The notes under the pieces are model-generated. The model saw only the letters and a list, made by a program, of their open reading frames with translations, did no database searches and was not told where the DNA came from. A stretch of 44,967 nucleotides of DNA from an uncultured delta proteobacterium (lineage in GTDB: Bacteria; Myxococcota_A; Polyangia; Polyangiales; Polyangiaceae), in the NCBI GenBank assembly GCA_963731595.1, contig CAVSWE010000003.1:300948-345914 (forward strand), written 5' to 3'. A program made the position numbers and the translations under genes. Shown one piece after another: positions 1 to 19,249 of this stretch. How positions within the stretch are numbered: position 1 is the first letter of the stretch; every line of letters starts with the position of its first letter.

Positions 1-115
1 CAAGCGCTTCGACGATATGCGTCTGCGGCGTGATGGGATAGGCGCAGATTACCTGGGGCCGGCAAAGCGCGATCGCCTCTGCAACCGCGCGCGATCCTTC
101 GGTCTGTTTAAGCAT
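1..115 (-). CDS. 2-oxoacid (pyruvate/2-oxoglutarate):ferredoxin oxidoreductase alpha subunit, N-terminal 38 aa only (runs off window)
   Basis: Reverse translation from the ATG at 115..113 gives [38 protein letters not shown], the conserved N-terminus of OFOR alpha subunits (AYPITPQT motif). The start overlaps the stop of the upstream gamma subunit gene. Confidence 0.6.
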
Positions 116-686
116 CGATCGTGTCTTTCGCTTGGGCGGCGAGCTCGAATGCTTCCGTCGCCGCGGCGACGTTCTTCTCCGCTACCGCCGCAGGAAATTT
201 CTGGCGGATGGCCGCGACGACCGAAGCCAGCGCGATCCGCTCAGTAACCGCGGCAAAGCCGCCGAGCAGCGCCGCGTTCGGCACCGGGCGGCCCACGTGC
301 TTGAGCGCAAGCTCGGTGGCCGGGAGCGAGCACAGGCGATAGCGCCCGACGCCCCGCGCGAACGGGCCCAGCCCGAGCTCGTCGAAGCTGCGCGTCGAGT
401 TGATCAGGATATAGCCATGCGGCTGGAGGCCACTGAACACGTCGACCTGATGCAGCAACGTCGGGTCCTGCACGATCAATGCATCGGGCTCCAGGACCGG
501 CTCGCGTAAGCGAATTTCCTTGTCGTCGATGCGGCAGAACGCCATCACGGGCGCGCCCATGCGCTCCGAGCCGAAGCTGGGAAACGCCTGGGCATAACGC
601 CCTTCGAGAAACGCCGCGACGGACAGCATTTCGGCGCCCGATACCACGCCCTGACCACCGCGGCCGTGAATCCGGATCTGGAACAT
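108..686 (-). CDS. 2-oxoacid:ferredoxin oxidoreductase gamma subunit
   Basis: ORF 108..821(-). The conserved part starts at [54 protein letters not shown], the signature of POR/KOR gamma subunits. Start set at internal ATG 686. Confidence 0.75.
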
Positions 687-789
687 GTCTGGTCGCGCCT
701 CGGTGTTCGCCGCAAGCCCTTGCGGCCCATTCATTGGGGAAAATCCTCCTGCCGACCCGGGAATTGTCCCCGTATTGCCGAAACCTATC

Positions 790-803
790 TTGACGCAGGT
801 CAA
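790..803. promoter_or_regulatory. FNR/Crp-family binding site TTGAC-N4-GTCAA in the divergent intergenic region between the OFOR gamma gene and frdC
   Basis: Perfect palindrome ttgacgcaggtcaa at 790..803. It lies ~140 bp upstream of the frdC ATG (943) and ~100 bp upstream of the divergent OFOR gamma start (686). Confidence 0.4.
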
Positions 804-942
804 CACTCGCCGACGGACCACGCGCTAGCTTCACGGGGCCTCGCCCGGATGACTGCAGCGGCCCGTGGACGGGCCGTTTCAGCCGGGACCGCGAGCCCGG
901 AAACGAGCACGGCGTCGACCACGCCGGGAAAGGAAGCGCACG

Positions 943-1750
943 ATGGAGCATAGCGGCCCGCTCATCGCCGGCGTCGGGCTCACCGACCCTGCCCGGCGCA
1001 GCCATTGGCCGGCGAGGCTGGACCTGGCGCAGAGCGCCTCGGGTCTCCTGCTCGCGCTTTTCATGTGGGCGCATATGGCCTTCGTCTCGTCGATCCTGCT
1101 TGGCAAGGACGTCATGTGGATGGTCACGAAATTCTTTGAAGGCTATTTTCTCTTCGGCCGGTCCTATCCGGGGCTTGTCTCGACCGTGGTCGCGCTGGTC
1201 ATCGCGCTCGTGGTAACGCACGCCATTCTGGCGCTGCGCAAATTCCCGATTAACTACCGTCAGTTCAGCACCTTTCGCGGCCATATGCGGATGCTGCGGC
1301 ACGAGGACACAACGCTTTGGTTCTGGCAGGTTGTCACTGGCTTCGCCCTGTTCTTTCTCGCCTCGGTGCACCTCTACATCATGCTTACCCGGCCCGACCG
1401 TATCGGGCCGTTCGAATCCGCCGACCGGGTGTGGAGCGACCATTTCTGGCCGCTGTATATCGTGCTACTGCTGACCGTCGAGGTGCACGGCGGGGTCGGC
1501 CTGTACCGGCTTGGCCGTAAAATGGGGTTGGTTCGCAGGCGGCGATGCGAACGCGGTGCGGCGTCGGCTCAAGCTCGCCAAATGGGCGCTGACGGCCTTC
1601 TTTCTGGTCCTTGGCGTGGCGACTCTGGCCGCCTATATCAAGATCGGCATCGAGCACCGTGACCACTATGGCGAGCACTACGTTCCCGCGGCGCAGCAAG
1701 CGTCGTCACCCCAACCCGCCGCTGGGGGCGCGGCGGGGAGCCCTCGGTGA
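943..1750 (+). CDS. frdC: quinol:fumarate reductase dihaem cytochrome b membrane subunit (Wolinella type), +1 frameshift at ~1511-1516
   Basis: [11 protein letters not shown]...[14 protein letters not shown]...[54 protein letters not shown]...GLYRL aligns along its length with W. succinogenes FrdC. The C-terminus ..[16 protein letters not shown] continues in the +1 frame (ORF 1511..1750). An extra G in cttGGccg breaks the frame. The frdC stop overlaps the frdA GTG (GTGA). Confidence 0.8.
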
Positions 1751-3765
1751 ACGTGATCTACACCGACGTGCTGGTGATCGGCGGTGGCCTCGCCGGGTTG
1801 CGGATCGGCATCGGTGCCAAACGCCGCGGCCAAGACGTGATCATCCTGTCGCTCGTCCCGCCCAAGCGCTCGCACTCTGCGGCGGCGCAAGGCGGCATGC
1901 AGGCGAGCCTGGGCAACGTCGTCAAGGCGATGGGTGACAACGAGGACGTGCATTTCGAAGACACCGTGCGGGGCAGCGACTGGGGCGCCGATCAGCGCGT
2001 CGTGCGCATGTTCGTCGACACGGCGCCCAAGGCCGTGCGCGAGCTTGCCGCGTGGGGCGTGCCGTGGAGCCGCGTGCAGAAAGGTGACCGGAAGGTGATC
2101 ATCAACGGGCAGAAGGTCACGATCACGGAGCGCGACGAAGCGCATGGACTGGTGATGCAACGCGACTTCGGTGGTACCAAGAAATGGCGCGCCTGCTACG
2201 TCTCCGACGGCACGGGTCACGCCATGCTGTACGCGATGAGCGACCAGGCAATCGCCCACGCGATCAGCGTGCACGAGCGCATGGAGGCCCTGGCGCTGAT
2301 CCACGACGGGTCGCGCTGCTATGGTGCGGTAGTACGCAACCTCGTGACCGGGAAATTGGTCGCGTACGTCGCCAAGGCTACCGCCATTGCGAGCGGCGGC
2401 GCGGGACGCCTCTATCGCGCGACGACCAACGCGGTCATCTGCGAGGGCATCGGCACGGCGCTGGCGTTGGAGACCGGCGTGGCAATGGTAGCCAACATGG
2501 AGGCGATCCAGTTTCACCCGACGGCAATCTTTCCGGCATGCATTCTGGTCACCGAAGGCTGCCGTGGGGACGGTGGATTGCTGCGCGACGCTGCGGGCAA
2601 GCGCTTCATGCCCGACTACGAGCCGGAGAAGAAGGAACTCGCCTCGCGCGACGTCGTATCCCGGCGCATGGAAGAGCACATCCGCAGGGGCGCGGGCGTG
2701 AAGTCACGGTTCGGCGAGCATCTGTGGCTCGACATCACCCTGCTCGGGGCCAAGCACATCGACAGCAACCTGCGCGAAGTGAAGGAGATCTGCCACTATT
2801 TCCTCGGCATCGATCCGATCAAGGATTGGATACCGGTGCGACCGGCACAGCATTACACGATGGGCGGGATCCGGACCGACCACACCGGCGGTAGCCCGAC
2901 GCTCAAAGGACTCTACGCCGCCGGCGAAGCCGCGTGCTGGGACCTGCACGGCTTTAACCGCCTGGGTGGAAACTCGGTCGCGGAAACCGTCGTCGGCGGC
3001 ATGATCGTGGGCGAGTTCATCGCCGATTTCTGTGCTCGTCCCGAGAGCAACCTGCAGTTCTCCACCGGCCTGATCCGCGAATTCCTGGAGCACGAGCAGG
3101 CCAAGCTCGACGCGCTCGCCGGTAACCGGGGCGGGGAAGAAGCCAACGCATTGCGGGTCCGAATGCAGGAGATCATGACGACCAAGGTCGGGATCTTCCG
3201 CACCGGCGGGGAGCTTGCCGCCGCGGTCGAGGAGCTGCAGTCGCTGCTGCGGCGCAGTCAGAACATCGGCCTGCGCTGCACCGCAAGTGGCGCAAATCCG
3301 GAGCTCGTTTCCGCCTACCGGGTCCAGAAGATGCTGCGGCTGGCGCTGTGCGTCGCCTACGGCGCGCTGACTCGGACCGAGAGCCGGGGCGCGCATTTTC
3401 GCCATGACTATCCGCGGCGCGACGACGCCGAATGGCTGAACCGCACGCTAGCAACGTGGAAGAGCGCCGACGACATGCTGCCGACGCTGGCACGCGAATC
3501 GCTTGACGTGATGCAGATGGAGCTGCCGCCGGGGTGGCGCGGATATGGGGCGAAGGACTACGTCGAGCATCCCGACACGGCGCGTCGTACCGCGGAGGTG
3601 GAGGCGATCAGGACCAGGCTCGTCAGTGCCGGCCGCGGGGTCGTACAGGAGGCCCTGATGCCGTACGCTGAGCTCATGCCCGAGCGCTTCCGCGGACCCA
3701 ACGAGCGCATCGATGAGCCGCTGCCACCGTCTCCCGCAGGCCCGCAACGACCGAGCCCGACATGA
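1747..3765 (+). CDS. frdA: fumarate reductase flavoprotein subunit
   Basis: 672-aa ORF with GTG start. It has an N-terminal FAD Rossmann fold ([11 protein letters not shown]), the covalent-FAD His region ([10 protein letters not shown]), and the active-site motifs [11 protein letters not shown] and HYTMGGI typical of FrdA/SdhA. Confidence 0.92.
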
Positions 3766-3822
3766 CCGGAGCCACCGCCATGGCCATCCCCGCCGGGGCC
3801 GCCTGAACGACCGCGGCGCAAG

Positions 3823-4536
3823 GTGCGGATTAGCGTCCTGCGCTACAACCCGCAGGAGCGCGGCAGTGTTCCCCGCATGCAGGCCTACGAACTCGAAGAG
3901 GCCGAGGGAATGACGCTGTTCATCGCGCTCAACGAAATCCGCGAAAAGCAGGACGCATCCCTGCAATTTGACTTCGTCTGCCGCGCCGGGATATGCGGCA
4001 GCTGCGGGATGCTGATCAATGGGCGCCCAGGGCTCGCCTGCCGTACGCTGACAAAGAACCTGGACCCGGAGATCACGCTGGCGCCCCTGCCGGTCTTCGA
4101 ATTGATCGCCGACCTTTCGGTGAACACCGGCAAGTGGATGCGGGCGATGAGCGAACGGCTGCAGACCTGGGTGCACATGCGCCAGAAAGAGGTGGACACT
4201 TCCCGGCTCGAGGAGCGCATGGAGCCGGAGCTGGCGCAGAAAATTTACGAACTTGATCGCTGCATTGAATGCGGGTGCTGCGTCGCCGGTTGTGGCACCG
4301 CGCGCATGCGCGAAGACTTTGTCGGCGCGGTCGGCCTGAACAAGATCGCCCGTTTCCGGCTCGACCCGCGCGACACGCGCACCGACGCAGACTTCTACGA
4401 ACTGGTCGGTGACGACAGCGGTGTATTCGGTTGCATGTCCTTGCTCGCTTGCCACGATGTCTGCCCGAAGGAGTTGCCGCTCGCAACGCAAATCGCCTTC
4501 ATGCGTCGCAAGATGGTGAGCATCGGTTGGAAATAG
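3823..4536 (+). CDS. frdB: fumarate reductase iron-sulfur subunit
   Basis: 237 aa. It carries the 2Fe-2S motif CRAGICGSCGMLINGRPGLAC and the 4Fe/3Fe cluster motifs CIECGCCVAGC and CHDVCP. Confidence 0.9.
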   Translation: MRISVLRYNPQERGSVPRMQAYELEEAEGMTLFIALNEIREKQDASLQFDFVCRAGICGSCGMLINGRPGLACRTLTKNLDPEITLAPLPVFELIADLSVNTGKWMRAMSERLQTWVHMRQKEVDTSRLEERMEPELAQKIYELDRCIECGCCVAGCGTARMREDFVGAVGLNKIARFRLDPRDTRTDADFYELVGDDSGVFGCMSLLACHDVCPKELPLATQIAFMRRKMVSIGWK

Positions 4537-4568
4537 CAGCGTCTTTTTGCACCCTATGTGGAGGAGTC

Positions 4569-5575
4569 ATGAAGGTCGCAACGAAGTTTGCAACACTAAG
4601 TGTCGCACTGGCTAGTTTAGCGATTGCGTTCGGGGCACCCGCACAGCAGCCGATCATCATCAAGTTCAGCCACGTCGTTGCCGTCGACACGCCCAAGGGC
4701 AAGGGCGCGGAGAAATTCAAGCAGCTGGCCGAGGAGCGTACGAAGGGCCGGGTCAAGGTCGAGGTCTACCCGAACAGCACGCTGTACAAGGACGGCGAGG
4801 AAATCGACGCCCTGCAGCTGGGCTCGGTGCAGATGCTCGCCCCCTCGGTGGCCAAGTTCGGGCCGATGGGGGTGCGCGAATTCGAAGTCTTCGACCTGCC
4901 GTACATCTTTGACGACTTCGGCGAGCTGCACAAGGTCACCGAAGGCGCGGTTGGGAAACTGCTGTTCCAGAAACTCGATTCGAAGGGCATCGTCGGTCTT
5001 GCCTATTGGGACAACGGCTTCAAGGATTTCAGTGCCAACAAGCCGCTTAGGCTTCCCGGCGACGTCAGGGGTCTGAAGATGCGCATCCAGTCGTCGAAGG
5101 TGCTCGATGCCGAAATTCGTGCCCTCGGGGGGATTCCGCAGGTGATGGCCTTCTCCGAGGTGTATCAGGCGCTGCAGACCGGCGTGGTCGACGGCACCGA
5201 GAATCCACCGTCGAATTTCTATACCCAGAAGATGAACGAAGTGCAGAAGTATCTGACCCTGAGCGATCACGGCGTCATCGAATACGCGGTAATCGCGAAC
5301 AAGAAATTCTGGGATGGCTTGCCGGCGGATATCCGCACCATCCTCGAAGGCGCGATGAAGGATGCGACCAAATACGCCAACGACATCGCCAAGGAGGAGA
5401 ACGACAAGGCGCTCGCGGCGGTCAAGGCGACCGGGAAGACTGAAATCCTGACGCTCAGCCCCGATGCGAAGGCGGCCTGGAAAAAGGCGCTCTGCCGGTG
5501 CATCGAGAGATGGAAAGCCGGGTCGGCAAGGACATCATCCAGGAGGTCTACAAGGAAACCGGGTTCAAGCCCTGA
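4569..5575 (+). CDS. dctP: TRAP transporter substrate-binding protein DctP (C4-dicarboxylate), one -1 frameshift in an A5 run at ~5481
   Basis: MKVATKFATLSVALASLAIAFGAPAQQPIIIKFSHVVAVDTPKGKG... is a typical DctP with signal peptide. After ..AAWKK the conserved C-terminus (LPVHREMESRVGKDIIQEVYKETGFKP*) reads in the -1 frame and ends at TGA 5573..5575. The as-given ORF instead runs on to 5711. Confidence 0.8.
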
Positions 5576-5624
5576 CCGAGCGTTGCAGCGCCTGATGCGC
5601 GAGCCGGGTTCGACGCAAACCGAC

Positions 5625-5651
5625 GCCGCTGCGGCCCGCAGCGGCTTTTTT
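5625..5651 (+). terminator. rho-independent terminator (or attenuator) between dctP and dctQM
   Basis: gccgctgcgg-ccc-gcagcggc is a perfect 10-bp GC stem, followed by tttttt. It sits 50 nt after the reconstructed dctP stop. Confidence 0.5.
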
Positions 5652-5694
5652 GTGTGCAGCAGAACGGCGGTCGACCAACCGGGGACGCTTGCGC

Positions 5695-6306
5695 ATGCTG
5701 AAGCTCCTTGACCACCTCGAAGAGTGGCTCATCGCGCTGCTCATGGGCGGCGCGACGTTGATCATCTTCGTGGCCGTCGTTCACCGCTATGCCGCGGGCC
5801 TGCCCATCCCCGTGGTGCAGGACTGGCTGCTTGCGCTCAACCTGTCGTGGGCGCAGGAAGCATGCATCTACATGTTCGTATGGATGGCCAAGTTCGGTGC
5901 CGCTTACGGCGTGCGCACCGGCATCCACGTCGGCGTGGACGTGGTGATCAATCACCTGCCCGACGGCGTGCGCCGCAAGTTCATTCTTTTCGGACTGGGC
6001 GCCGGCGCGCTGTTCACCGGCGTGGTGGCCTCGTTCGGCGCCAGTTTCGTGTGGCAGCTCGCCCACACCGACCAGACCTCGCCCGACATGGAGCTGCCGA
6101 TGTGGCTGGTCTATCTGGCCATTCCCTGCGGCTCGGGGCTGATGTCCTTCCGCTTCCTCCAGGTGGCGTGGAACTTCTGGCGCACGGGCGAGCTGCCGCA
6201 TCACGACCCGACCGACGTGGCGGGCGTCGAAAAAATTGCCGACCAGGACGCCCACGTCGGCCTGGCGCAAGACAATCTTTTTCCCGCGCCGCCTGGCAAG
6301 CGCTGA
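5695..6306 (+). CDS. dctQ: TRAP transporter small permease DctQ
   Basis: MLKLLDHLEEWLIALLMGGATLIIFVAVVHRY... has four predicted TM helices, typical DctQ size and position. Confidence 0.8.
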   Translation: MLKLLDHLEEWLIALLMGGATLIIFVAVVHRYAAGLPIPVVQDWLLALNLSWAQEACIYMFVWMAKFGAAYGVRTGIHVGVDVVINHLPDGVRRKFILFGLGAGALFTGVVASFGASFVWQLAHTDQTSPDMELPMWLVYLAIPCGSGLMSFRFLQVAWNFWRTGELPHHDPTDVAGVEKIADQDAHVGLAQDNLFPAPPGKR

Positions 6307-6309
6307 GCC

Positions 6310-7605
6310 ATGACCTCCGCCATCATCTTCGGGCTGTTGATCGCGCTCATGCTCACCGGCATGCCCATCTCGATCGCGCTCGGGCTCACGGTCCTGACTT
6401 TCGTGTTCACCATGACCCAGGTGCCGATCGAATCGGTGGCCCTGAAGCTGTTCACCGGCATCGAGAAGTTCGAGATCATGGCCATCCCCTTCTTCATCCT
6501 CGCCGGCACTTTCCTCACCCATGGCGGGGTGGCGCGGCGGATGATCAATTTCGCCGCCTCCATGGTCGGCCATTGGCATGGAGGGCTGGCGCTCGCAGGC
6601 ATCATCGCCTGCGCGATGTTCGCGCTTGTATGCGGTTCGAGCGTCGCCACGGTGGTGGCCATCGGCTCCATCGTGCTGCCGGAGATGGTCAAGCGCGGCA
6701 TCCCCATGGACTTCGGCGCCGCCGTGATCACCGTCGCCGGTTCGCTCGGCATCCTGATGCTGCCGTCGATCCCCAAGGTCATCTACGCGATCGCCACCAA
6801 CACCTCGATCGGCGCGTTGTTTGTCGCCGGCCTGCTGCCGGGGATCCTGCTGACCACGATGCTCTGCCTGGTCACCTGGTATATCGCCAAGAAGCGCAAT
6901 TACCCGCGGCTGCCGCGCGAAAGCTGGGGCGCGCGCTTCAAGGCGTTCCGAGAGTCCGTCTGGGGCCTGATGCTCGTGGTCATCATCATCGGCGGCATCT
7001 ACTCGGGGATCTTCACCGCCACCGAGGCGGCCGCGATGGCCGCGGTGTACGCGTTCTTCGTGTCGGTGTTCGTGTACAAGGCCATGCCGCTCAAGGATTT
7101 GCGCAAGGTGCTGCTGACCTCGGCCAACATGAGCGCAATGCTGCTCTACATCATCACCAACGCGGCACTGTTCTCGTTCATCCTCACCAACGAGAACATT
7201 CCGCATGCCCTGGCGGACTGGATTATTGCCAAGGATCTGGGCTGGGTGGGGTTCCTGTTGCTGGCCAACGTGCTGTTGCTCCTGGCCGGCAATTTCATGG
7301 ACCCGTCCTCGGTCATTCTCATCATGGCGCCGATTCTCTACCCCGCGGCGATGACGCTCGGGATCAATCCGGTGCATCTCGGCATCCTGATCGACGTCAA
7401 CATGGAGGTCGGGCTCTGCCATCCCCCGGTGGGGCTCAATCTGTACGTGGCCTCGGGCATTTCGCGCCTCGGCATCACGCAGCTGACCAAGGCGCTGGTT
7501 CCCTGGCTCGTCACCATGCTGATCTTCCTGGTCATCGTCACCTATTGGCCGGCGCTGTCGACCTGGCTGCCGCAGAAGATGGGTATGATGGGGCCGTTGC
7601 CCTAG
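6310..7605 (+). CDS. dctM: TRAP transporter large permease DctM
   Basis: 431-aa polytopic membrane protein with DctM-family sequence throughout (MTSAIIFGLLIALMLTGMPISIALG...). It starts 4 nt after the dctQ stop. Confidence 0.9.
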   Translation: MTSAIIFGLLIALMLTGMPISIALGLTVLTFVFTMTQVPIESVALKLFTGIEKFEIMAIPFFILAGTFLTHGGVARRMINFAASMVGHWHGGLALAGIIACAMFALVCGSSVATVVAIGSIVLPEMVKRGIPMDFGAAVITVAGSLGILMLPSIPKVIYAIATNTSIGALFVAGLLPGILLTTMLCLVTWYIAKKRNYPRLPRESWGARFKAFRESVWGLMLVVIIIGGIYSGIFTATEAAAMAAVYAFFVSVFVYKAMPLKDLRKVLLTSANMSAMLLYIITNAALFSFILTNENIPHALADWIIAKDLGWVGFLLLANVLLLLAGNFMDPSSVILIMAPILYPAAMTLGINPVHLGILIDVNMEVGLCHPPVGLNLYVASGISRLGITQLTKALVPWLVTMLIFLVIVTYWPALSTWLPQKMGMMGPLP

Positions 7606-7647
7606 GTCCGGCGGGTCGAATCGACAAACGGCCGCTTTTCCGCGGCT

Positions 7648-7953
7648 ATGTTACTCCGACCCACTTCGCAGATAAACTTCAGTTCTTTTGGCCCAACCAG
7701 TATGCGGCTCGCAAAGTTCGTCAAGGTACGCGAGGAGAAATTTGGCGGCGTCCTCTTCGAGACGCGCTCGGAGAAGGTTTTTACGCTCAATCCAACGGCC
7801 ATGGCGGTCGTGCGCGAGATCGAAGCAGGCCATGACGAGCGCGAGATCGCCATGCGACTGAAGGCGCGCTTTAACGACAGTACCGACGTGATCGAGCGCG
7901 AAGTCGTCGCGTTCATCGCGGAGCTGCGGCAGAGAAGCCTTGTCGAGGGTTGA
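7648..7953 (+). CDS. PqqD/MftB-family peptide chaperone (RiPP recognition element protein)
   Basis: (M)RLAKFVKVREEKFGGVLFETRSEKVFTLNPTAMAVVREIEAGHDEREIAMRLKARFNDSTDVIEREVVAFIAELRQRSLVEG matches the PqqD-family pattern (FG..L...., LN.ta..vw, C-terminal fi..L). An alternative start is ATG 7702. Confidence 0.65.
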   Translation: MLLRPTSQINFSSFGPTSMRLAKFVKVREEKFGGVLFETRSEKVFTLNPTAMAVVREIEAGHDEREIAMRLKARFNDSTDVIEREVVAFIAELRQRSLVEG

Positions 7954-7957
7954 GCGC

Positions 7958-9112
7958 GTGACAACATTGGCAACGGATAACGGACCCGACTCCGCGATCC
8001 CAGCGACGACCTCGACCTACGCCTGCTCGGAGGACCTCGCCGCGCCACTCTACGTGGCCTGGCAGATCACCAACGAATGCAACCTCGCCTGCCTGCACTG
8101 TATCGAGGAGAGCGGGCCGGGCAAGGCGTTCGCAGATGAGCTCGACGCGGCGCAGATATTCTCGGTGCTCGACCAGTTGCTGGACCACCAAGTCCCCTAC
8201 ATGTCCTTCTCGGGCGGCGAGCCTATGCTGCATCCGCAGTTCTTCGAGATGGTGGAGCACGTCTGCGCGCGTGGCGCCCAGCTCAAGATCGAGACCAACG
8301 GTCATTATCTGTCCGCCGAAAACTGTGCGCGGATGAAGGAACTCGGCGTCAAGGCGGTCCAGGTGAGCCTCGACGGCGCGTCCGCCAAGACGTTCGAGCG
8401 TATGCGCGTGCGCGGGAACTTCGATCGCACGCTCGATGGCCTGCGCAACCTTCGCGCGGCAGGCGTGCCCGTGGAGATTAACTTCTCGCCCGCCTGCTTC
8501 AACGTCCATGAGATCGGCGCGGTCGTCGACCTCGCATACAAGCTGGGCGCATACAGCTTCTACACCGGGACGCACGATGTACACCGGCAACGCCGTCAAG
8601 GCTTGGCGCCACCTGGAAGTTTCGGAGCCGAGCAATACGAGGCGTTCTTCGCTGTTCTGCGGCAAAAAGCCGAGGAGTACCACGGCCGCATGCGCGTCTA
8701 CTTTCACGAGGCGGGGTTGCTCGAGGAGCTGCGTTATCGCCTGCAGCACCCGGCTGCGCTGCTGATCGTGCTCCCGAACGGCCTGGTCAAGCTCATCAAC
8801 GCCTTGCCCTTCGTGTGCGGCGATTTTCGCCGCCAGACGCTGCGGGAAATCTGGGCGAATTTCCGCCGCGCCTGGCACGACCCGCGCGTGGCACAGTTCG
8901 TCGACGAGCTTGGCACCGACCCGGGCGGACACGGACGCTGCACCAATGGGTCTATCTTTGACTGCGCTGCCCGTGCGATCCGGCCGTTCGGCGCGCACGG
9001 CGCTGCACCGGCTGCTCGCCGTTTGCCGCCTGGTGCGCTACCGGTTTTTCCTATATGCCGGGCTGCTGCCGTATCTGCTCGGCGCGGCCTGGGCCTACGC
9101 TCGCGCTGGTAG
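7958..9112 (+). CDS. radical SAM enzyme, MftC/PqqE-like (SPASM-family-like) maturase, paralog 1 of 3. The 3' end is uncertain and there is an internal compensating frameshift pair at ~8570/8623
   Basis: ..PLYVAWQITNECNLACLHCIEESGPGKAFADEL..FSGGEPMLHPQFFEMV..QLKIETNGHYL..VQVSLDGASAKTFERMRVRGNFDRTLDGLRNLRAAGVPVEINF aligns block by block with mycofactocin maturase MftC (CLTWELTYRCNLACVHCLSSSGKRDPGEL...GGGEPTVRPDF...VQISLDGATAEV...). The CxxxCxxC motif follows the W-x-I-T motif. Its tail overlaps the start of the prenyltransferase gene. Confidence 0.72.
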   Translation: MTTLATDNGPDSAIPATTSTYACSEDLAAPLYVAWQITNECNLACLHCIEESGPGKAFADELDAAQIFSVLDQLLDHQVPYMSFSGGEPMLHPQFFEMVEHVCARGAQLKIETNGHYLSAENCARMKELGVKAVQVSLDGASAKTFERMRVRGNFDRTLDGLRNLRAAGVPVEINFSPACFNVHEIGAVVDLAYKLGAYSFYTGTHDVHRQRRQGLAPPGSFGAEQYEAFFAVLRQKAEEYHGRMRVYFHEAGLLEELRYRLQHPAALLIVLPNGLVKLINALPFVCGDFRRQTLREIWANFRRAWHDPRVAQFVDELGTDPGGHGRCTNGSIFDCAARAIRPFGAHGAAPAARRLPPGALPVFPICRAAAVSARRGLGLRSRW

Positions 9113-9897
9113 CCTTCGACGCGCCGATTTTCTGGAGCGGCCTCGCGGGTGTAGTGCTCGCCGTAATCGGCGTCGAGGCATTCAACGAGTATTTCGATTC
9201 ACGCATGGGCACCGACCGCGTCTTCAACCCGGCCGAACTCCCGCCGATGTCTGACGCAGTGCTCTGGTTGGGCATTGCGGCCTTCGCCGGCGCGCTGGCG
9301 GTCGGCATCTACCTGACCGTGCGTGGCGGCTGGCCGATCCTGGCCTTCGCACTCCTGGGTGGAACGGCGGCGATCTTTTATGTGGCGCCCCCGATACGCT
9401 GGGCCTATCGTGGCCTGGGCGAACTGGTCATCGCCCTGTCCTACGGGCCCTGGATGGTACTGGGCAGCCTCTACCTGCAGAGCCAGGCGCTGTCGTGGGG
9501 GGCGCTCTTCGCGTCGCTCGTACCGGGATGCCTGATCATGGCGCTCGCGGTCGTCAACGCGATTCCCGATTACCACCAGGATCGCTTGGTCGGCAAGCGC
9601 AATCTCGTCGTGCGGCTCGGCCGCCGGCGCGCGGTTTGGCTGTATCTTGCCCTTGCGGCAGGCGGACTGCTGGTGGTGCCGGTCGGCGTAGCGAGCGGCA
9701 TCTCCCCGCCACCTGCCTGGCGGCCTTACTGGCGGTGCCGCTGCTCGTGGCCAGCGGCCGCTGCGCGCTGCGGCACTTATGAAACACCGCGCGCCTTTGT
9801 TCCCGCCGTGCGCAGCATCGTCGGCTGCTATCTGGTCGCCGTCGTGCTGTTCACCGCCGGCGTCCTGTGCAGTGGCGTAGCGTCCTTGCGCCCATGA
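8946..9897 (+). CDS. UbiA-family polyprenyltransferase, MenA-like (1,4-dihydroxy-2-naphthoate polyprenyltransferase-like). As given it carries ~3 frameshifts (~9095, ~9715, ~9780)
   Basis: Reconstructed MGLSLTAL..RLVRYRFFLYAGLLPYLLGAAWAYA / LALVAFDAPIFWSGLAGVVLAVIGVEAFNEYFDSRMGTDRV...NAIPDYHQDRLVGKRNLVVRLG has both UbiA Asp-rich motifs (N-x3-D-x5-D and D-x3-D). The NAIPDYHQDRLVGKRNLVVRLG segment matches E. coli MenA NNLRDINSDRENGKNTLVVRLG. The start overlaps the paralog-1 radical-SAM gene; the stop overlaps the paralog-2 start (ATGA at 9894..9897). Confidence 0.7.
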
Positions 9898-10861
9898 ACT
9901 GGATCGATCGCCTGCGCGCGCCGCTGTTCGTGTCCTGGCAGATCACGCGCGACTGCGACCTGTGCTGCCTGCATTGCTGCACCGAGTCGGCGCCGGGGAA
10001 GCGGTTGCCGGACGAACTCGACGCTGCCGAAGCGACGTGGCTGGCCGAGGAGATCGTCCGCAACGCAGTGCCCTACGTGATGCTTTGCGGCGGCGAGCCT
10101 TTGGTCGTGCCGCACTTTTTCGCCCTTGCCGAAGTCGCTGGGGCGGGCAGGCGTCCAGCTGAAGATCGAGACGAACGGGCAGCGCTTCGATGCCAAACTC
10201 GCCGCCCGGCTCGCCCGCCTGCCCGTCCGGTCGGTACAGATTAGCCTGGACGGCGACACACAGGAGGTCTACGAGCGCCAGCGGCCCGGGCGGCTTCGCT
10301 CGCCAAAGCCCATGCGGCCTGCCGCGCCGCTCGTGCGGCCGGGCTGCCGCTCGAAGTCACCTTTGCGCCGACCCGGCTCAACATTCACCAGGCCGGGCCG
10401 GTCATCGAGCGGGCGCGGGCGCTTGGTGCCTTTCGCTTCAATACCGGGCGGCTCATGCGCATCGGCACCGCCGCGCGGCTGTGGGAGAAGCTCGAGCCTT
10501 GCCGAGGAGCAATACCGGGAATTCCGCGCCTGTTGAACCGCATGGCCCGGCGCCTAGAGGGGCAACTGGAGATTTGCCATGCTCCGTTTGACCTCGCGGA
10601 AGGGCTGCGCGGCAGCCTCCAGAACGCCGCCGGCAACCCTGCTCGTGCTGCCCAACGGCTGGGTCAAGGTTGCCGCGGCACTGCCGCAGATCTGCGCTGA
10701 CTTGCGCCGCCATAGCCTTGACGGAGGCCTGGGAGGCCTACCGCAACGCGTGGCGGAGTGATACAGTGCTGGCGGAAGTACGGCGCGCGGTCGCCGATCC
10801 ATCGCGTCACGCGCGAGGCCAACAGTTGGCAGTTGTTGCCCGTCGCCCCGGTGTGACCTGA
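9894..10861 (+). CDS. radical SAM enzyme, MftC/PqqE-like, paralog 2 of 3. It is broken into at least 4 ORF pieces by about five 1-nt indels, from sequencing error or real pseudogenisation
   Basis: The pieces MNWIDRLRAPLFVSWQITRDCDLCCLHCCTESAPGKRLPDELDAAE..CGGEPLVVPHFFALAE / VQLKIETNGQRFD..VQISLDGDTQEVYERQRPG / ..AARAAGLPLEVTFAPTRLNIHQAGPVIERARALGAFRFNTGRLMRIGTAARLWEKLEP / LLVLPNGWVKVAAALPQICADLRRHSL / EAWEAYRNAWRSD.. are collinear with paralog 1 across four reading frames. Confidence 0.6.
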
Positions 10862-10872
10862 CGGAGGGAAAA

Positions 10873-11025
10873 TGAGCGAGTTGAACCTGACGATCGAAGC
10901 CGCCAAGACCGGCGACGAACGCAAGACCGATACGGTGCAGCCGGCGCAAAAGCCGCATGGGAAACGCCCAAGCTCGAGGACGTGTCCGAGCAGGTGATGG
11001 CCCAACCGTATATCCGCTTCACCTG
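10873..11025 (+). CDS. candidate RiPP precursor peptide (51 aa, reconstructed across one frameshift in an A4 run at ~10949-10952); PqqA-like C-terminal core
   Basis: A strong SD (ggaggg-aaa-ATG) precedes it. Frame 1 reads MSELNLTIEAAKTGDERKTDTVQPAQK. After a 1-nt indel in caaaag the frame continues as AAWETPKLEDVSEQVMAQPYIRFT* to the TGA at 11023. The W-x-x-P-x-L-x-D-V...E...Y pattern recalls PqqA (WKKPAFIDLRLGLEVTLY). It sits immediately upstream (20 nt) of paralog 3. Confidence 0.4.
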
Positions 11026-11045
11026 AGATACCCAGAACTTTCGCA

Positions 11046-11982
11046 ATGCCGGGGCGTTCGGTAGAAGAGTACCGAGCACCCCTTTTTCTTGCCTGGCAGC
11101 TGACCAACCGCTGCGCTGCGCGCTGCATCACCTGCTGCGAGGAATCCGGTCCCGATAAGGCATGGGGCGATGAGCTTTCCCGTGACGAGGCGATCGCGCT
11201 TGCACGGCGCATCGCGGCGTTCGGCATCGCCTACGTTGCCTTCGGCGGCGGCGAGCCGCTAGGTGTACCGCATTGCTGGGATCTGCTCGAGCTGCTCGCC
11301 GCGGCCGGCATCGCTCTTAAGATCGAGACCGACGGCAGTCACATCGACGCTTCCGCGGCCGATCGGCTCTCGGCGCTCGGCGTCGAGTGCATCCAAATTT
11401 CGGTCGACGGAGCGACAGCGGCGACGCATGAGCGCGTGCGTCCGGGATCGAGCTTCGCCGCGGCGGTCGCCGCCATCGAGCGACTGGTCGCGCGCGGTCG
11501 TGCACCGCAATTGGTGTTCGTTCCCACCCGCTTCAACTGCACGAGATCGTCGCCGCGTTCGATCTGGCGGCAACGCTCGGCTGCGGCGCATTCGTCACCG
11601 GCCCGCTGATGCGCATCGGCCGCGCCGCGGGCGCACTGGCAGCGCATCGCCTGCAGCAGACGAGGAGTGGCGCGCCGCGGTTACCGCGTTGAGAGAACGC
11701 ACCGCGTCGATGCGGCCCCGGAATGGCCCTTGTCGATCTATCCTTGGGACATTCGTTGCGGAGATGGAAACGCGGCTCGAGCGACCGCAGGCGATGCTGC
11801 TGGTCGTGCCCAACGGCAAGGTCAAGCTGCTCAATGCGCTCCCGTTCGCCGCCGCCGACCTGCGCCGCGATTCGCTCGAGGACGCGTGGCGGGCCTATCG
11901 CGACGCCTGGCATGCGCCGGAGGTGCGCGAATTCATCACCCGCTGCCGCAGCCAATCCAGCGCTGCTGATGCACGCCAATGA
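11046..11982 (+). CDS. radical SAM enzyme, MftC/PqqE-like, paralog 3 of 3 (at least 2-3 frameshifts as given)
   Basis: MPGRSVEEYRAPLFLAWQLTNRCAARCITCCEESGPDKAWGDEL..AFGGGEPLGVPHCWDLLELLAAAGIALKIETDGSHID..IQISVDGATAATHERVRPGSSFAAAVAAIERLVARGRAPQLVFVPTRFN, then in other frames ..AFVTGPLMRIGRAAGAL.. and ..ERPQAMLLVVPNGKVKLLNALPFAAADLRRDSLEDAWRAYRDAWHAPEVREFITRCRSQSSAADARQ*. This is collinear with paralogs 1 and 2. Confidence 0.6.
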
Positions 11983-12112
11983 GACATGGCCGATGGTTAG
12001 GAACGACGGTTGACCCCCGCGCCAGAAACCCCAATACTTAAGCGGCTGTGATTGAATACTTACCCGTCGTAGCGAAGCTTTTGAGGGCCCGGGAGCCCGC
12101 TGATCGGTTGCG

Positions 12113-12442
12113 ATGCATCGACTGACATTGGGACTACTCGCCGCCTGCACCGCTGGCGCAATCGCGGTTGCGGCCCAGCCAGCGCCGGACAGCTCCCGCG
12201 GCGAGCTCCTCTATTCCACCCATTGCATCGGTTGCCATAGCGCGCAGGTGCATTGGCGCGAAAAGAGGCTGGCGACAGACTGGGCAAGTCTCAGGATGCA
12301 AGTATTTCGATGGCAGATGAACACGGGCCTCGCCTGGAGCGACGAGGACATCGTCGCTGTCACCCGCTATCTGAACGATCTCTACTACCGTTTTCCGACG
12401 CCGGACAGGCCGGTGGCATTTCAGGGGTCGTCGGGTAACTGA
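12113..12442 (+). CDS. secreted mono-haem c-type cytochrome (109 aa)
   Basis: It has a signal peptide (MHRLTLGLLAACTAGAIAVAAQPAP) and a single CxxCH haem-binding motif (HCIGCHS). Same strand as the radical-SAM cassette, 130 nt downstream of it. Confidence 0.65.
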   Translation: MHRLTLGLLAACTAGAIAVAAQPAPDSSRGELLYSTHCIGCHSAQVHWREKRLATDWASLRMQVFRWQMNTGLAWSDEDIVAVTRYLNDLYYRFPTPDRPVAFQGSSGN

Positions 12443-12585
12443 TCCCGGGCTGCCGCGTCAAATCGATGTGAGTCGCTCGTTCTTTGCCGTCGACAAATGC
12501 TCTAGCTCGGGAGGCGCGCGCATACGACGGTCGAGTCCATCTCCCAGCGAGTGATCACTCGTGCCCCCAACGCGAGTGTACTGTT

Positions 12586-13095
12586 CTAGCTTGGCCGCCG
12601 CTGCAATAACGTGCCCAGGAGCAGAGCGAAGCCCAGGAAAATGACAAGCGACGCTTGCGCCAGAGTAAGTCCCAGGATCTTAAAGGACGTATCGGAACAG
12701 TCTCCCGTGGCATGCAGCAGTTGGGTCAGTACTTCGCTGACCGCCATGGTGTCCAGCATGTAGGCCAGGCCGGCACTGCAAGAGGCGACGCTTGGTGCCG
12801 GAAAAAGTTGCAGGTACGTCTGATAGCCGGCGACCCCGAGTCCTTCCAACGTCAGGATCGCAGCCATCCAAAGGAGAGCCCGCTGTACTCGACCTTGGGG
12901 CCGCGCCACGGCTGCGGCAAAGAAGACGGGTATCAGGCCAAGATACGTGAGCCGTTGGATGATGCACAAGGGGCACGGTTCGATCCCCAGTATGTGCTGG
13001 ACAAAAAAGCTTGCACCGACAAGACCGGTGCAGGTCACTCCAAGCAAGATCGAAACTTGGGCAGGAGAAGTCAGCACACGCGAAAGCCTATTCAC
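12586..13095 (-). CDS. dsbB: disulfide bond formation protein B (DsbB family)
   Basis: Four TM helices. A first periplasmic-loop CxxC (EPCPLCIIQR) and a second Cys pair (SCSAG ... GDCSD) fit the DsbB architecture. Confidence 0.6.
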   Translation of the reverse strand: MNRLSRVLTSPAQVSILLGVTCTGLVGASFFVQHILGIEPCPLCIIQRLTYLGLIPVFFAAAVARPQGRVQRALLWMAAILTLEGLGVAGYQTYLQLFPAPSVASCSAGLAYMLDTMAVSEVLTQLLHATGDCSDTSFKILGLTLAQASLVIFLGFALLLGTLLQRRPS

Positions 13096-13511
13096 GGAAA
13101 TCGGCCGGCAATGCAGCTCCCCGCGGGACCCAGTACGCTAGGGGAATTTTGCCACGTCCGAGCCTGATCTCAGAAGTTTCTCCTCCGCAAAGGGCTGCTT
13201 CACCGCCCCAGGCCCGACGCGCGGAGCTTGGCCGCAATGGCTGGTGAATTTCGGCTTCACGACCCGGTGATCGCCCGGAGGCGCATCGCGAAATGCGCCT
13301 GGTCTGCGCCAAAGTGGCGCGAACGGCGCCTGGTTGACAGTCGGGGAATCGCCTGGCGGTTGCATGTTAAATCAATAACTTGCGACGCTTACCCTCTTAG
13401 TTGCGCATGAATTAGCGTCGTTGGAGTTTCCTTGAGGTACATCAACAGCCCAGATACGGCTTGGCTATAGGCTTCGTATTGCGGTGCAACAAAATCACGT
13501 CAGGAGCGCCC

Positions 13512-16569: not shown

Positions 16570-17051
16570 TCAGCCCGTGAACTCATGCGCCCTGACCTGG
16601 CCGTGCTGGCGGCGAGCGACGTCTTTCAGCCGCGCGGTGAGGCTCGCGAAGCCGTCGCGCAGCGCGACATACACTTCCTCGTCGTGGTCGCAATTGACGA
16701 CGAGCTCGTGGCCCGGAAGATCCGTGAGGTCCGGATTGCCACCATGCGACGGCATCTGTCGGACACCCTTAAGCGCATTCTTTTCCGCACCCGCCCGGTG
16801 CTCCAACTTCAGCCGGTCAAGCAGCGGTGCCGCGTCCGGAAGGCGCACACGCAAAAGCTGGAACAGATACTGATCCTCCTTGGGATGGTGAAAGCACTCG
16901 CGGAATGCATCGATGTAATAGATCATCGCCCCAGCACGCCGAAATCCGACGTGGCTCCCCGGTCGCGGATCTGGTGCACCAGATAAAGCATGCCGTGCAA
17001 GACCGCCGCCAGCGAACGGTGTTCGTCCTGAATGGCGCGGTTCGCCTGCAT
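16570..17051 (-). CDS. hemerythrin-like (HHE cation-binding) domain protein, one frameshift at ~16930
   Basis: MQANRAIQDEHRSLAAVLHGMLYLVHQIRDRGATSDFGVLG then shifts frame to MIYYIDAFRECFHHPKEDQYLFQLLRVRLPDAAPLLDRLKLEHRAG.., with the H-x3-E / HH..KE motifs of hemerythrin-like domains. ATG 17051 lies 25 nt downstream of the hemN stop. Confidence 0.55.
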
Positions 17052-17075
17052 ATTCGTCCTTCTTTCCCGAATGCA

Positions 17076-18478
17076 TCAGATGATGCGCGAGTTGCGCGCC
17101 GCCCACGCTGCTCACGCAGGTAACGGTCGAATACCATCGCCACCGTGCGAACTAAGAGCCGACCGCGCGGCGTCACGTGGATCGCGTCCGATGCGATTTC
17201 GACCAACCCGTCGTCGGCCAGCGGTGCAAGTGACTTGAGCTCGGTTGCGAAGTAATCGCGGAACGCGATGGCGTACGCGCTCTCGACGCGCTCGAACGAG
17301 ACGGTGAATTGGCACATGAACGCGTGGATCACATCGCGCCGCAAAACGGTCGTCGGCAGAAAGCCGCCAGCCGCGAAAACATGGTAGCGCATCGTCGTCG
17401 AGCCGGGCGTAGTAATCATCCAGAGTACGCAGATTCTGGCTGTAGGACGCACCGACCTTGCCGATTGCGGAAATACCGAATGCCAAAAGATCGCAATCAG
17501 CGTGCGTCGAGTAGCCTTGAAAATTGCGGTGCAGCTTGCCTCACGCTGTGCGACAGCAAGCGCGTCGTCGGGCCGCGCGAAATGATCCATGCCGATGTAG
17601 ACGTAACCGGCGCCGGTCAACTTTTCGATTGCAAGCTCAAGAAGGGCTAACTTGGCCTCCGCCGACGGCAACTCCGCTTCGCTGATGCGCCGCTGCGGCT
17701 TAAACAGATGTGGCACGTGCGCATAGCTGTATAGCGCAAGTCTATCCGGCGCACCGTCGAGCACCTTGTCCAACGTGACGGCCGAAGCCGGCCAAAGTCT
17801 GCCGCGGGAGACCATAGATTAAGTCGATGTTTAAGGAGCGGAAGCCATTCGCACGTGCGGCGTCGAGTACAAATGCGAGTCTCGGCTTCCGATTGAATGC
17901 GGTTCACCGCCTGTTGTACGGCTGGGTCGAAGTCCTGTACGCCGATGCTCATCCGGTTGAAGCCAAGCTCCGAGAGAAGCTTAACCGTCCCGGCGACGCC
18001 AAATGGCGGGGGTCGACTTCGATCGAGCATTCGGCGTCAGGCACAAACGCAAAGCTGTCGTGTAGGACACGCCATAGCAACTGTCATTTCCTCGGCCGAC
18101 AGGAACGTCGGCGTGCCGCCGCCCCAGTGCAACTGTGTGACGGGGGACGCCGAATCGACGAGCCCCGACACGATTGCGACCTCCCTGCCGAGATAGTGGA
18201 TATATTTTGCGGAGCGGCCATGGTCCCGGGTCGTGACCTTGTTGCACGCGCAGTAGTAGCAGATGGTGTTGCAGAACGGCACGTGCACGTACAGCGACAG
18301 CGGCTGCGGCGCGCCGGCTCTGGCGGTTGACAAGCGCGTTAGCGAGATGGTCGGCGGTGAATGCTTCCGTAAAGCGATCTGCCGTCGGATAGGAGGTGTA
18401 GCGCGGCCCAAAGCCATCGTACTTGCGGATCAGATCCGAGTCGAACGGGAGGCCTGTAGTCGGCGTGCAGTGAACCAT
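17076..18478 (-). CDS. hemN: oxygen-independent coproporphyrinogen III oxidase (radical SAM), at least 4 frameshifts as given
   Basis: The pieces [40 protein letters not shown] / [36 protein letters not shown] / [22 protein letters not shown] / [67 protein letters not shown] / [24 protein letters not shown] are collinear with E. coli HemN across several frames. Confidence 0.7.
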
Positions 18479-18706
18479 GTTGGCATCGTGCCAGCCGACC
18501 ATTGCTTTGAACTTGAGCTAGATCAAGCCGGCTGCAGACTCGTTCAGAATCGTGGACACGTGCGCACGTTGCCTCGGCCCATCGCCTATTCGACATCCAT
18601 GTCAGACTGACCGGCCGGGGGGGGCGATTTCTGGGTAGTCCGCACGCCACCACGTCGAGCGACGTAAAGCCACACGGTCGAGGCAAAGTGTGCAGAGAGC
18701 TAAGCA

Positions 18707-19249
18707 TCAAAGTCCAGAGCGTCGGCAACCGAGGAGATTGGCACGCATCCAGACTGCGTGTTCACGTTCAGGCGGCATTTGCGGTCGCTCATCAACGACG
18801 TTGTAGGCGACTTCATAGTGCGCCACGCTGCGGTCATGGCTAAGCATCATGGCTTCGACAGGGGGCGGGACGACAGCGACTCCAACGTCGGCGCCAGCAA
18901 ACGCTTTGATAGCCCCCAAAGACTCCCACAGCGTTAGAGCGCGGATGCTTCCGTCGCCTTCACCGCCTGGATCCCCGACCGGATGCCCTCGGACAGCATC
19001 GCGGCAAACGGCGTCTCTCCAAACGGGGGCCCTCAGCGTCCAGGAAACGCGTGCCACAGATCCTCGCCAAAGTAGGCGAGAGAACTGTATTGGCTGGGCT
19101 GCAACGCGTCCGGCGGCAGCGAATTGGTCGCGGAGAGGCGGTACCATGCCAGCGTGGTTGCCAAACAGACTGCCACGGCGACCGCCATGGCGATTCGAGT
19201 GGCCGATTTGCGCGGGATCCGATTCGTCATCGCCGAATCCTCCTATCAC
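18707..19249 (-). CDS. putative ABM-domain (antibiotic-biosynthesis-monooxygenase-like) protein; N-terminal frame uncertain
   Basis: The C-terminal ..DGSIRALTLWESLGAIKAFAGADVGVAVVPPPVEAMMLSHDRSVAHYEVAYNVVDE resembles the second half of ABM/YgiN-type domains. A TM/signal segment (ORF 19033..19230) lies upstream in another frame. Confidence 0.3.
   Translation of the reverse strand: MIGGFGDDESDPAQIGHSNRHGGRRGSLFGNHAGMVPPLRDQFAAAGRVAAQPIQFSRLLWRGSVARVSWTLRAPVWRDAVCRDAVRGHPVGDPGGEGDGSIRALTLWESLGAIKAFAGADVGVAVVPPPVEAMMLSHDRSVAHYEVAYNVVDERPQMPPEREHAVWMRANLLGCRRSGL

Follow-up and report, generated by a model that had tools for sequence, protein, structure and literature searches.

Three anciently diverged radical SAM paralogs without SPASM cluster ligands in a widespread cassette with a PqqD-family protein, a UbiA-family prenyltransferase and a candidate precursor peptide

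The window analyzed here is a stretch of 44,967 nucleotides from an uncultured delta proteobacterium (GenBank assembly GCA_963731595.1, contig CAVSWE010000003.1, positions 300,948 to 345,914 of the forward strand); all positions below count from its first base. It carries a plus-strand cassette of six genes, three of which encode radical S-adenosylmethionine (SAM) enzymes, termed rSAM1, rSAM2 and rSAM3. The first gene encodes a PqqD-family peptide chaperone of 83 amino acids (7702-7953; PF05402, E 2.4e-13), i.e., a recognition element (RRE) for peptides synthesized ribosomally and modified post-translationally (RiPPs). It is followed by rSAM1 (7958-8961; 333 amino acids, GTG start), which comprises a radical SAM core and a Cys-less SPASM-like C-terminal domain. 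The stop of rSAM1 is overlapped by the start of a gene for a MenA/UBIAD1-like polyprenyltransferase of the UbiA family (8946-9880; 310 amino acids; PF01040). The paralog rSAM2 (9894-10856; 318 amino acids), with an orthologous group of its own (P0121-P0240), a precursor-peptide candidate of 51 amino acids (10872-11026; MSELNLTIEAAKTGDERKTDTVQPAQKPQWETPKLEDVSEQVMAQPYIRFT) and the paralog rSAM3 (11046-12013; 320 amino acids) complete the cassette. The initial annotation of this DNA had described three radical SAM paralogs in tandem. They are indeed collinear, but they are not strictly tandem: the UbiA gene lies between the first and the second, and the 51-amino-acid open reading frame (ORF) between the second and the third.

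In a six-frame translation of positions 7600-12500, three radical-SAM-like plus-strand sequences are found, each split among several frames. A database query with rSAM1 returned an intact protein (P0001, 91% identity), the contigs of which represent two near-identical loci, L001 and L002. In L002, which stems from a short-read assembly, the genes for PqqD, rSAM1, UbiA, rSAM2, the 51-amino-acid ORF, rSAM3 and a c-type cytochrome all have intact frames, and the gene coordinates given here are those frames mapped onto the window. The alignment between the window and L002 shows 96.9% identity with 27 gap openings, all of which are single-base indels between positions 8565 and 11954 (19 insertions and eight deletions). 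They disrupt every cassette gene but PqqD, with four 1-bp indels in rSAM1, about seven in rSAM2, seven in rSAM3, a frameshifted UbiA gene and a single 1-bp deletion at 10958 in the peptide gene. Two details of the initial annotation do not survive the correction of the frames. Its end of the array at position 11982 is a stop induced by a frameshift (the true end is 12013), and the cysteine pair that it read in paralog 1 (GRCTNGSIFDC) is an out-of-frame artefact, as the real C-terminus of rSAM1 reads ...GTDPGRTRTLHQWVYL.

With every paralog frameshifted, the cassette could be read as a series of pseudogenes in decay or as an artefact of assembly, a reading that might draw on the 27 indels within 3.4 kb and on an indel and mismatch density above that of the flanks. 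The substitutions relative to L002 are, however, overwhelmingly synonymous and located at third positions (synonymous/nonsynonymous codons: 22/5 for rSAM1, 23/11 for UbiA, 22/8 for rSAM2 and 14/5 for rSAM3), which shows that the cassette genes are live and under purifying selection; errors in the sequence or its assembly are the best explanation for the frameshifts. Moreover, all indels are 1 bp in size and 19 of the 27 are insertions, six intact ORFs are present in the 97%-identical short-read locus, the same kind of breakage is seen in other long-read-style contigs of metagenome-assembled genomes (MAGs), and the DNA identity between the paralogs is no higher than 60-63%. Decay or artefact is thus extremely improbable. 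As a side observation, 1-bp indels are concentrated in two zones, the cassette, with ~6-11 per kb in the comparison with L001, and positions 17000-19000; most other parts of the window have 0-3 per kb. Substitutions, too, are denser in the cassette than in the genes that flank it (PqqD, DctM and cytochrome c; ~100% protein identity). Strain heterogeneity, or a segment that recombined within a long-read consensus, may account for this concentration.

The corrected sequences of rSAM1, rSAM2 and rSAM3 contain all the shared motifs that had been reported from the uncorrected DNA: WQ(I/L)T..CX3CX2C, GGEP, LKIET(N/D)G, S(L/V)DG and LLV(L/V)PNG.VK, along with ALP...(G/A)D(L/F)RR and W..(Y/F)R.AW. The CX3CX2C motif is invariant within each orthologous group. 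All three proteins belong to the radical SAM superfamily, with PF04055 scores of 73-90 bits against a threshold of 29.5. In pairwise BLASTP comparisons, they are 40%, 38% and 41% identical over ~300 residues in nearly gap-free alignments (E 6e-75, 4e-77 and 1e-70, respectively), and global alignment yields 37-41% at the protein level, a little under the ~40-50% estimated initially, and 60-63% at the DNA level. Identities of this order rule out chance similarity as well as a recent or assembly-derived duplication. Each paralog also has its own large orthologous group and forms its own clade in a rough neighbor-joining tree, and each of these clades spans MAGs labelled as Burkholderiales, Steroidobacteraceae and Acetobacteraceae. 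The duplication is therefore ancient, as the initial annotation had proposed; from this, separate roles for the three paralogs may be inferred.

Within the radical SAM superfamily, the paralogs fall outside the curated families. Their best NCBIfam matches are MftC (top or second for all three), AhbD and NirJ, mainly covering the core. Against the MftC model (TIGR03962), they score 104-124 bits with a cutoff of 265, whereas a true MftC used as a control (P0318) reaches 460 bits. The scores are similarly far below the cutoffs for PqqE (TIGR02109; 55-84 versus 381 bits), AhbD (TIGR04545; 84-125 versus 500 bits) and NirJ (TIGR04051; 72-112 versus 515 bits). In the NCBIfam scan of the paralogs and 28 members of a wider clade, no model was matched at its own cutoff.

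The C-terminal region was compared in an alignment of the three paralogs with the true MftC (460 bits against the TIGR03962 cutoff of 265) and eight other SPASM-bearing relatives. The SPASM/twitch ligand pattern (CX9-15GX4C ... CX2CX5CX3C ... C) is absent, as all seven canonical positions are non-Cys in each paralog. In the order rSAM1/rSAM2/rSAM3, the first ligand is replaced by Q/Q/E, the second by L/L/L and the third by I/A/L, the CX2CX5CX3C block is deleted in all three (~26 alignment columns), and the final DPxC element reads DPGR/NPSR/HPAL. Consistently, PF13186 (SPASM) is matched in none of the three, and Pfam detects the Radical_SAM core only. Nonetheless, the beta-hairpin PNGxV, the G(D/N), the l..iW helix and the terminal DP element are retained, and the C-terminal hairpin and helix pack on the partial triosephosphate isomerase (TIM) barrel as in SPASM/twitch folds. 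An AlphaFold2 model of rSAM1 (predicted local distance difference test score 86, predicted template modelling score 0.84) has its best structure matches with SkfB (26.5), BlsE (22.6), PqqE (22.2), SuiB (21.9) and anSME (21.1); these extend over 255-287 residues, i.e., beyond the core, and Foldseek is concordant. The proposal that the fold was kept while most auxiliary Fe-S ligands were lost is thus borne out by the MftC alignment and the rSAM1 model, except that the loss comprises all seven ligands, since the corrected reading frames do not restore any of them. These anciently diverged paralogs are best explained as functional genes for a radical SAM peptide maturase with a SPASM domain that has lost the canonical ligands and kept the fold.

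Alternatively, the paralogs might bind an auxiliary Fe-S cluster through non-canonical cysteines, in which case the degenerate SPASM domain would have been rebuilt rather than lost. Extra conserved cysteines do occur in every orthologous group (C103, C123 and C286 in rSAM1; C29, C65, C142, C227 and C266 in rSAM2; C31, C115, C180, C203 and C299 in rSAM3) and in the clade of single-copy enzymes described below, where C45 and C280 are invariant and four others are 81-92% conserved. We nonetheless regard a rebuilt cluster as unlikely, because the extra positions differ between the paralogs and most fall on helices of the core, several of them on outer barrel helices according to the secondary structure of the model. 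Only one (C286/C266/C280) falls in the SPASM-like domain: it is the sole conserved cysteine of this domain in rSAM1 and rSAM2, immediately N-terminal to the Gly of GD, and is replaced by Ala in rSAM3. Furthermore, fewer than three extra cysteines are strictly invariant in the ancestral-type clade.

Loss of the ligands without loss of the domain extends beyond these three genes. In an exhaustive search without profiles, the family itself turned out to be small when delimited at 50% identity; around it lies a wider clade of Cys-poor radical SAM enzymes of 310-365 amino acids, members of which adjoin genes with PqqD domains, small ORFs and transporters. A Cys-less SPASM-like architecture thus recurs among RRE-dependent peptide maturases. 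Two observations on this wider clade can be added. In loci L083 and L087 (6001-8264), the radical SAM gene is followed by a fusion of PqqD and GNAT (286-290 amino acids), an ORF of 76-79 amino acids and an ABC transporter, and these clusters adjoin RHS/YD-repeat and giant beta-helix proteins. In the Thermoprotei loci L085 and L086, PqqD and a Cys-less radical SAM enzyme precede a protein of 284-288 amino acids with a partial Radical_SAM match and a SPASM domain, by which the SPASM module might be supplied in trans.

The 51-amino-acid ORF between rSAM2 and rSAM3 encodes the candidate precursor. Its ~28 N-terminal residues are hypervariable, whereas the 22 C-terminal residues, WETPKLEDVSEQVMAQPYIRFT, are nearly invariant; 68 distinct peptides occur among the 73 from Burkholderiales-type loci. 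Across 71 distinct DNA versions of this tail, codon variability amounts to 0.276 at position 3 against 0.045 at positions 1 and 2. This six-fold bias indicates that the ORF is translated and selected at the amino-acid level. A candidate precursor is present in every complete locus. Pfam and NCBIfam scans with the whole peptide or the core only retrieved no family at E values up to 10.

The gene order of the window is a fixed one. A scan of one genome per species yielded 236 species genomes with a close rSAM1 homolog, 80 loci of which were fetched. The order PqqD, rSAM1, UbiA, rSAM2, peptide, rSAM3 is identical in every sufficiently long locus among them. Carriers include Casimicrobiaceae, Usitatibacter, Caldimonas, other Burkholderiales MAGs, Steroidobacteraceae, Acidocella and Rhodopila, with one complete genome (CP019169). 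The PqqD gene adjoins rSAM1 in all loci; it was counted in 81 of 82 loci of the Burkholderiales type, and each of the 33 distant loci discussed below has it as well. The protein scores 50.6 bits against PF05402 (cutoff 23.4), which assigns it to the PqqD family of RREs with predicted peptide binding; weaker NCBIfam matches to lasso PqqD, PqqD and MftB remain below cutoff. The UbiA gene is equally persistent (82/82 Burkholderiales-type and 32/33 distant loci). With 77 bits against PF01040 (cutoff 34.2), its product is a member of the UbiA superfamily. Its best NCBIfam matches are MenA models, all below cutoff (at best 104.6 versus 264), and its sole sequence match in the PDB is UBIAD1 (8djk, E 1e-7). 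A set of 129 orthologs conserves both Asp-rich motifs (NEyFDxxxGxD and PDxxqDrLVGKrN).

A smaller form of the cassette occurs far outside the Burkholderiales-type genomes. Metagenomes were scanned with intermediate relatives that are 36-48% identical to all three paralogs, resulting in 80 loci, 33 of which are at least 7 kb long and were examined. All 33 show a minimal cassette of peptide, PqqD, one radical SAM gene and UbiA (the latter being counted in 32, as given above), and two have two radical SAM genes. Their radical SAM enzymes are 40-47% identical to rSAM1, and their PqqD proteins ~30% identical to that of the window. The peptide tail follows the pattern W-x-K-P-x-L-E-D-V-S-x-x-(V/I)-M-A-Q-P-Y-I-R-F-T, in which MAQPYIRFT is invariant over the 33 loci. 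The taxon assignments obtained among these distant carriers are Elusimicrobiota and MSBL1 only. In the MSBL1 archaeon (locus L169, SCGC-AAA261F19, LHXZ01000005.1), the order is polyprenyl synthase, peptide (...VMAEPYIRFT), PqqD, two radical SAM genes and UbiA, adjoining complex-I-like genes. The gene calls in the public record include neither the archaeal precursor of 31 amino acids (MEEEEEEREWEKPVLEDITKEVMAEPYIRFT; 6549-6644 of L169) nor the archaeal UbiA prenyltransferase (8906-9721 of L169). The six-gene cassette is an elaboration of this four-gene system found across bacteria and one archaeon. The rSAM1 gene is the syntenic ortholog of the single radical SAM gene of the minimal cassette. 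Synteny and the tree both equate rSAM1 with the lone enzyme of the ancestral state; rSAM2 and rSAM3 are added paralogs that flank a relocated peptide gene. In the literature available without a subscription, to which the search was confined, neither the combination of radical SAM, PqqD, UbiA and peptide genes nor the core sequence is described. The cassette is an undescribed, widespread system, with no curated family model for its radical SAM enzymes or its peptide.

Genes of energy metabolism recur around the cassette. In five distant loci (L153, L154, L160, L161 and L164), it is inserted between nqrE and nqrF of an operon of the Na+-translocating NADH:quinone oxidoreductase (NQR) type, with gene spacings of 11-20 nt or 4-nt overlaps in L153. 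In four others (L120, L131, L140 and L141), it lies directly 3' of nqrABCDEF, and in L127 ~2.4 kb downstream of nqrF. Altogether, an Nqr gene is adjacent in 13 of 33 distant loci; the assignments are confirmed by NCBIfam, in which NqrB scores above cutoff and the other subunits just below. A long-chain polyprenyl-diphosphate synthase gene is adjacent in nine of 33 (seven directly after UbiA, two upstream), and in MSBL1 as well. Neighbours in the Burkholderiales-type loci are Sdh/Frd (12/80), an MtrB/PioB porin (15/80), a NapC/NirT quinol dehydrogenase (7/80) and MtrC/OmcA-type and other multihaem cytochromes (5-6 loci each of 80). Reactivity with membrane quinones is what these respiratory neighbours share. 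In the cassette flanks of L014, L015, L042 and other Burkholderiales-type loci, this porin recurs, as do MtrC/OmcA-like and MtrA-like multihaem cytochromes and NapC/NirT (5-7 loci each); taken together, they are the parts of an extracellular electron-transfer module. Besides, a pair of a response regulator and a histidine kinase accompanies 11-12 of the 33 minimal cassettes, usually immediately 3' (L093, L094, L118, L120, L141, L153, L154 and L161); its recurrence suggests dedicated regulation of the minimal cassette. None of the linked genes sought in the 80 and 33 loci is universal beyond the cassette.

In the window itself, an sdh/frd-type operon (cytochrome b, flavoprotein and FeS protein) and a tripartite ATP-independent periplasmic (TRAP) dicarboxylate transporter, dctPQM, lie directly 5' of the cassette on the plus strand (941-7605). 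The assignment of the operon is taken from the Pfam table of the near-identical locus L001, and its coordinates follow from the offset between L001 and the window; DctP and DctM were mapped onto the window, and DctP is frameshifted near its 3' end. Together with subunits of a 2-oxoacid:ferredoxin oxidoreductase of the pyruvate:ferredoxin oxidoreductase type, they make positions 1-7605 look like an anaerobic, fumarate-linked neighbourhood. On the other side of the cassette, a small c-type cytochrome (CIGCH; 12113-12442, plus strand) is followed by DsbB (12586-13095, minus strand). These flanks are context only: the sdh/frd-type operon, dctPQM, the cytochrome c and DsbB are not conserved with the cassette across the fetched loci. 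Further downstream, palindromes of the FNR/CRP type (TTGAT-N4-ATCAA, at most one mismatch) occur at 13432, 18513, 19328, 25968 and 32838, five against 0.65 expected from shuffling, near genes for a short-chain dehydrogenase/reductase, HemN and a Crp-family regulator (27669-28454); no FNR-type box was found in front of the cassette. A protein of 467 amino acids with four beta/gamma-crystallin repeats is encoded at 25464-26867 on the minus strand, and the GC content of the 20-30 kb region (0.56-0.59 against 0.60-0.68 elsewhere) indicates that it may be an island.

What the cassette produces was considered by comparative genomics, on which all functional statements are based. By analogy, its parts would reproduce the anatomy of a peptide-derived-cofactor pathway of the pyrroloquinoline quinone (PQQ) or mycofactocin type, extended with an obligatory MenA/UBIAD1-like polyprenyltransferase. 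That the RRE guides the radical SAM enzymes to the peptide, which is tailored and prenylated, appears moderately probable. From what is known of the families, PqqD would bind the PqqA-like segment W-x-x-P-x-L-E-D-V-S and present the core (V/I)MA(Q/E)PYIRFT to one or more radical SAM enzymes. With a single [4Fe-4S]/SAM site, such an enzyme would abstract a hydrogen atom in or near this core. As no auxiliary cluster is available as an electron acceptor, the reaction in the region of the invariant Tyr seems more likely to be redox-neutral or fragmenting (e.g., Tyr-centred C-C cleavage, rearrangement or epimerisation) than a classical two-electron oxidative cross-link. In Burkholderiales, rSAM2 and rSAM3 may catalyse additional steps, take over part of the task of the single enzyme of the minimal cassette, or assemble into a hetero-oligomer. 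Given its obligate co-occurrence, the MenA-like UbiA protein could then add a polyprenyl chain to the resulting aromatic moiety, leading to a membrane-anchored product; in other lineages, the adjacent long-chain polyprenyl-diphosphate synthase would be the source of the chain.

The gene neighbourhood hints at where such a product might act, i.e., as a quinone-like carrier or cofactor of the respiratory chain. That it is a quinone-type respiratory carrier or cofactor can be put forward only tentatively. The same caution holds for the more specific proposal of a ribosomally templated, polyprenylated redox carrier, the aromatic head-group of which would be carved by the cluster-less radical SAM enzymes from ...AQPYIRFT before MenA-like prenylation, and which would possibly act as a quinone-type substrate or cofactor for the Na+-NQR, complex-I-like, fumarate-reductase and CymA/Mtr modules of numerous uncultured bacteria and certain archaea. 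Several points weigh against these proposals. Modification and prenylation of the peptide are predictions from comparative genomics, and neither Pfam nor NCBIfam ties the peptide to PqqA or MftA. The respiratory neighbours occur in a minority of loci (13/33 and 12-15/80) and vary by lineage. Among the 80 and 33 loci, the cassette has no conserved companion gene for a peptidase, oxidoreductase, methyltransferase or exporter, so that the visible genes do not add up to a full pathway to a free quinone. Finally, the group-specific cysteines of rSAM2, rSAM3 and the single-copy clade could bind a non-canonical second cluster.

The cassette might instead be an ordinary secondary-metabolite RiPP system, with the prenylated peptide as an antibiotic, signal or surface molecule and no role in energy metabolism. 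The usual parts (an RRE, a radical SAM enzyme and a small precursor) are there, other members of the Cys-poor clade reside in typical RiPP clusters with ABC transporters, and the kinase/regulator pair is found beside about a third of the minimal cassettes. Against this, the last nine residues of the peptide are the same in Burkholderiales and in uncultured lineages of low GC, and the archaeon differs at one of them, a pattern that fits cofactor precursors such as PqqA and MftA, not antibiotics or pheromones. In addition, the 80 and 33 loci show no conserved gene for export, proteolysis or immunity alongside the cassette, and cassettes are embedded in nqr operons, where stop and start codons overlap. 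We therefore give the RiPP explanation little credence. A different explanation is that the peptide is not a substrate at all, and that the radical SAM enzymes, with their AhbD/NirJ/MftC-like cores, and UbiA convert a small molecule (for instance a tetrapyrrole, or one on a novel route to a menaquinone-type head-group), with PqqD and the small ORF in an accessory or regulatory role. AhbD and NirJ are indeed among the best NCBIfam scores, haem O synthase and chlorophyll synthase belong to the UbiA family, the window encodes HemN and c-type cytochromes nearby, and cluster-less radical SAM enzymes of similar fold (BlsE and viperin) use small molecules. However, the AhbD, NirJ and MftC scores are far under the curated cutoffs (e.g., 125 versus 500), the UbiA protein matches MenA and UBIAD1 while haem O synthase models are unmatched, and both a PqqD-family RRE (81/82 and 33/33 loci) and a peptide selected at the amino-acid level accompany the radical SAM enzyme over very large evolutionary distances, which makes a small-molecule substrate quite improbable. 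Tailoring and prenylation of the peptide remain the preferred reading.

If the product were such a respiratory carrier or cofactor, an RRE/radical SAM system that is among the most widespread uncharacterised ones, present in at least 236 soil Burkholderiales-type species genomes and in hundreds of metagenome loci of other lineages, including archaea, would be a cofactor pathway and not an antibiotic cluster. Its lipid-anchored, peptide-derived product, tied to respiration, would join PQQ and mycofactocin as a third cofactor of peptide origin, and would be the first lipid-soluble one, residing in the membrane quinone pool. For organisms with the cassette in NQR or complex-I-like operons, it would be a candidate for a "missing" quinone. 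It would also imply that SPASM-type peptide maturases are able to work without an auxiliary cluster, which bears on the purpose of those clusters. The minimal four-gene form is small enough for direct heterologous reconstitution.

Among known systems, the cluster-less or structurally closest radical SAM enzymes are remote in sequence: SkfB, BlsE and viperin share 16-22% identity with the cassette enzymes, and SkfB keeps its auxiliary-cluster ligands. BlsE and viperin have nucleotide-type small-molecule substrates and no RRE partner; our literature search retrieved no BlsE paper documenting the lack of an auxiliary cluster. The prenyltransferase resembles MenA and UBIAD1 in its UbiA fold family, both Asp-rich motifs, its best profile matches (MenA) and the polyprenyl-diphosphate synthase adjacent in several lineages. 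It differs from MenA in scoring below every MenA equivalog cutoff and in never occurring with men or mqn genes in the examined loci, where its constant partners are PqqD, a radical SAM enzyme and the peptide. With the PQQ pathway (PqqA/PqqD/PqqE), the cassette has in common a PqqD protein, a radical SAM enzyme and a Tyr-containing core, and PqqE is among the best structural matches. We take the W-x-x-P...Y spacing of the new peptide to be that of PqqA. Unlike PqqE, the cassette enzymes have no auxiliary-cluster ligands, and PqqB, PqqC and PqqF are missing while a prenyltransferase is present. PqqA reacts at Glu-16 and Tyr-20, and PqqD binds its N-terminal leader (PMC10906245). The new peptide has no Glu at Tyr-4 and is not matched by PqqA models. 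The likeness to mycofactocin (MftA/MftB/MftC) consists of a separate PqqD-family chaperone, MftC-like radical SAM enzymes and a cofactor-like conservation pattern. Like the cassette peptide, MftA is a small precursor with a highly conserved Tyr-containing C-terminal core that follows an acidic ..E(E/D)VS.. stretch; in MftA, this core ends in ..GVY. The core of the cassette peptide ends in ..AQPYIRFT instead, all seven SPASM cysteines of MftC are gone, genes for MftD, MftE and MftF are missing, and the cassette combines an obligatory UbiA protein with one to three radical SAM enzymes.

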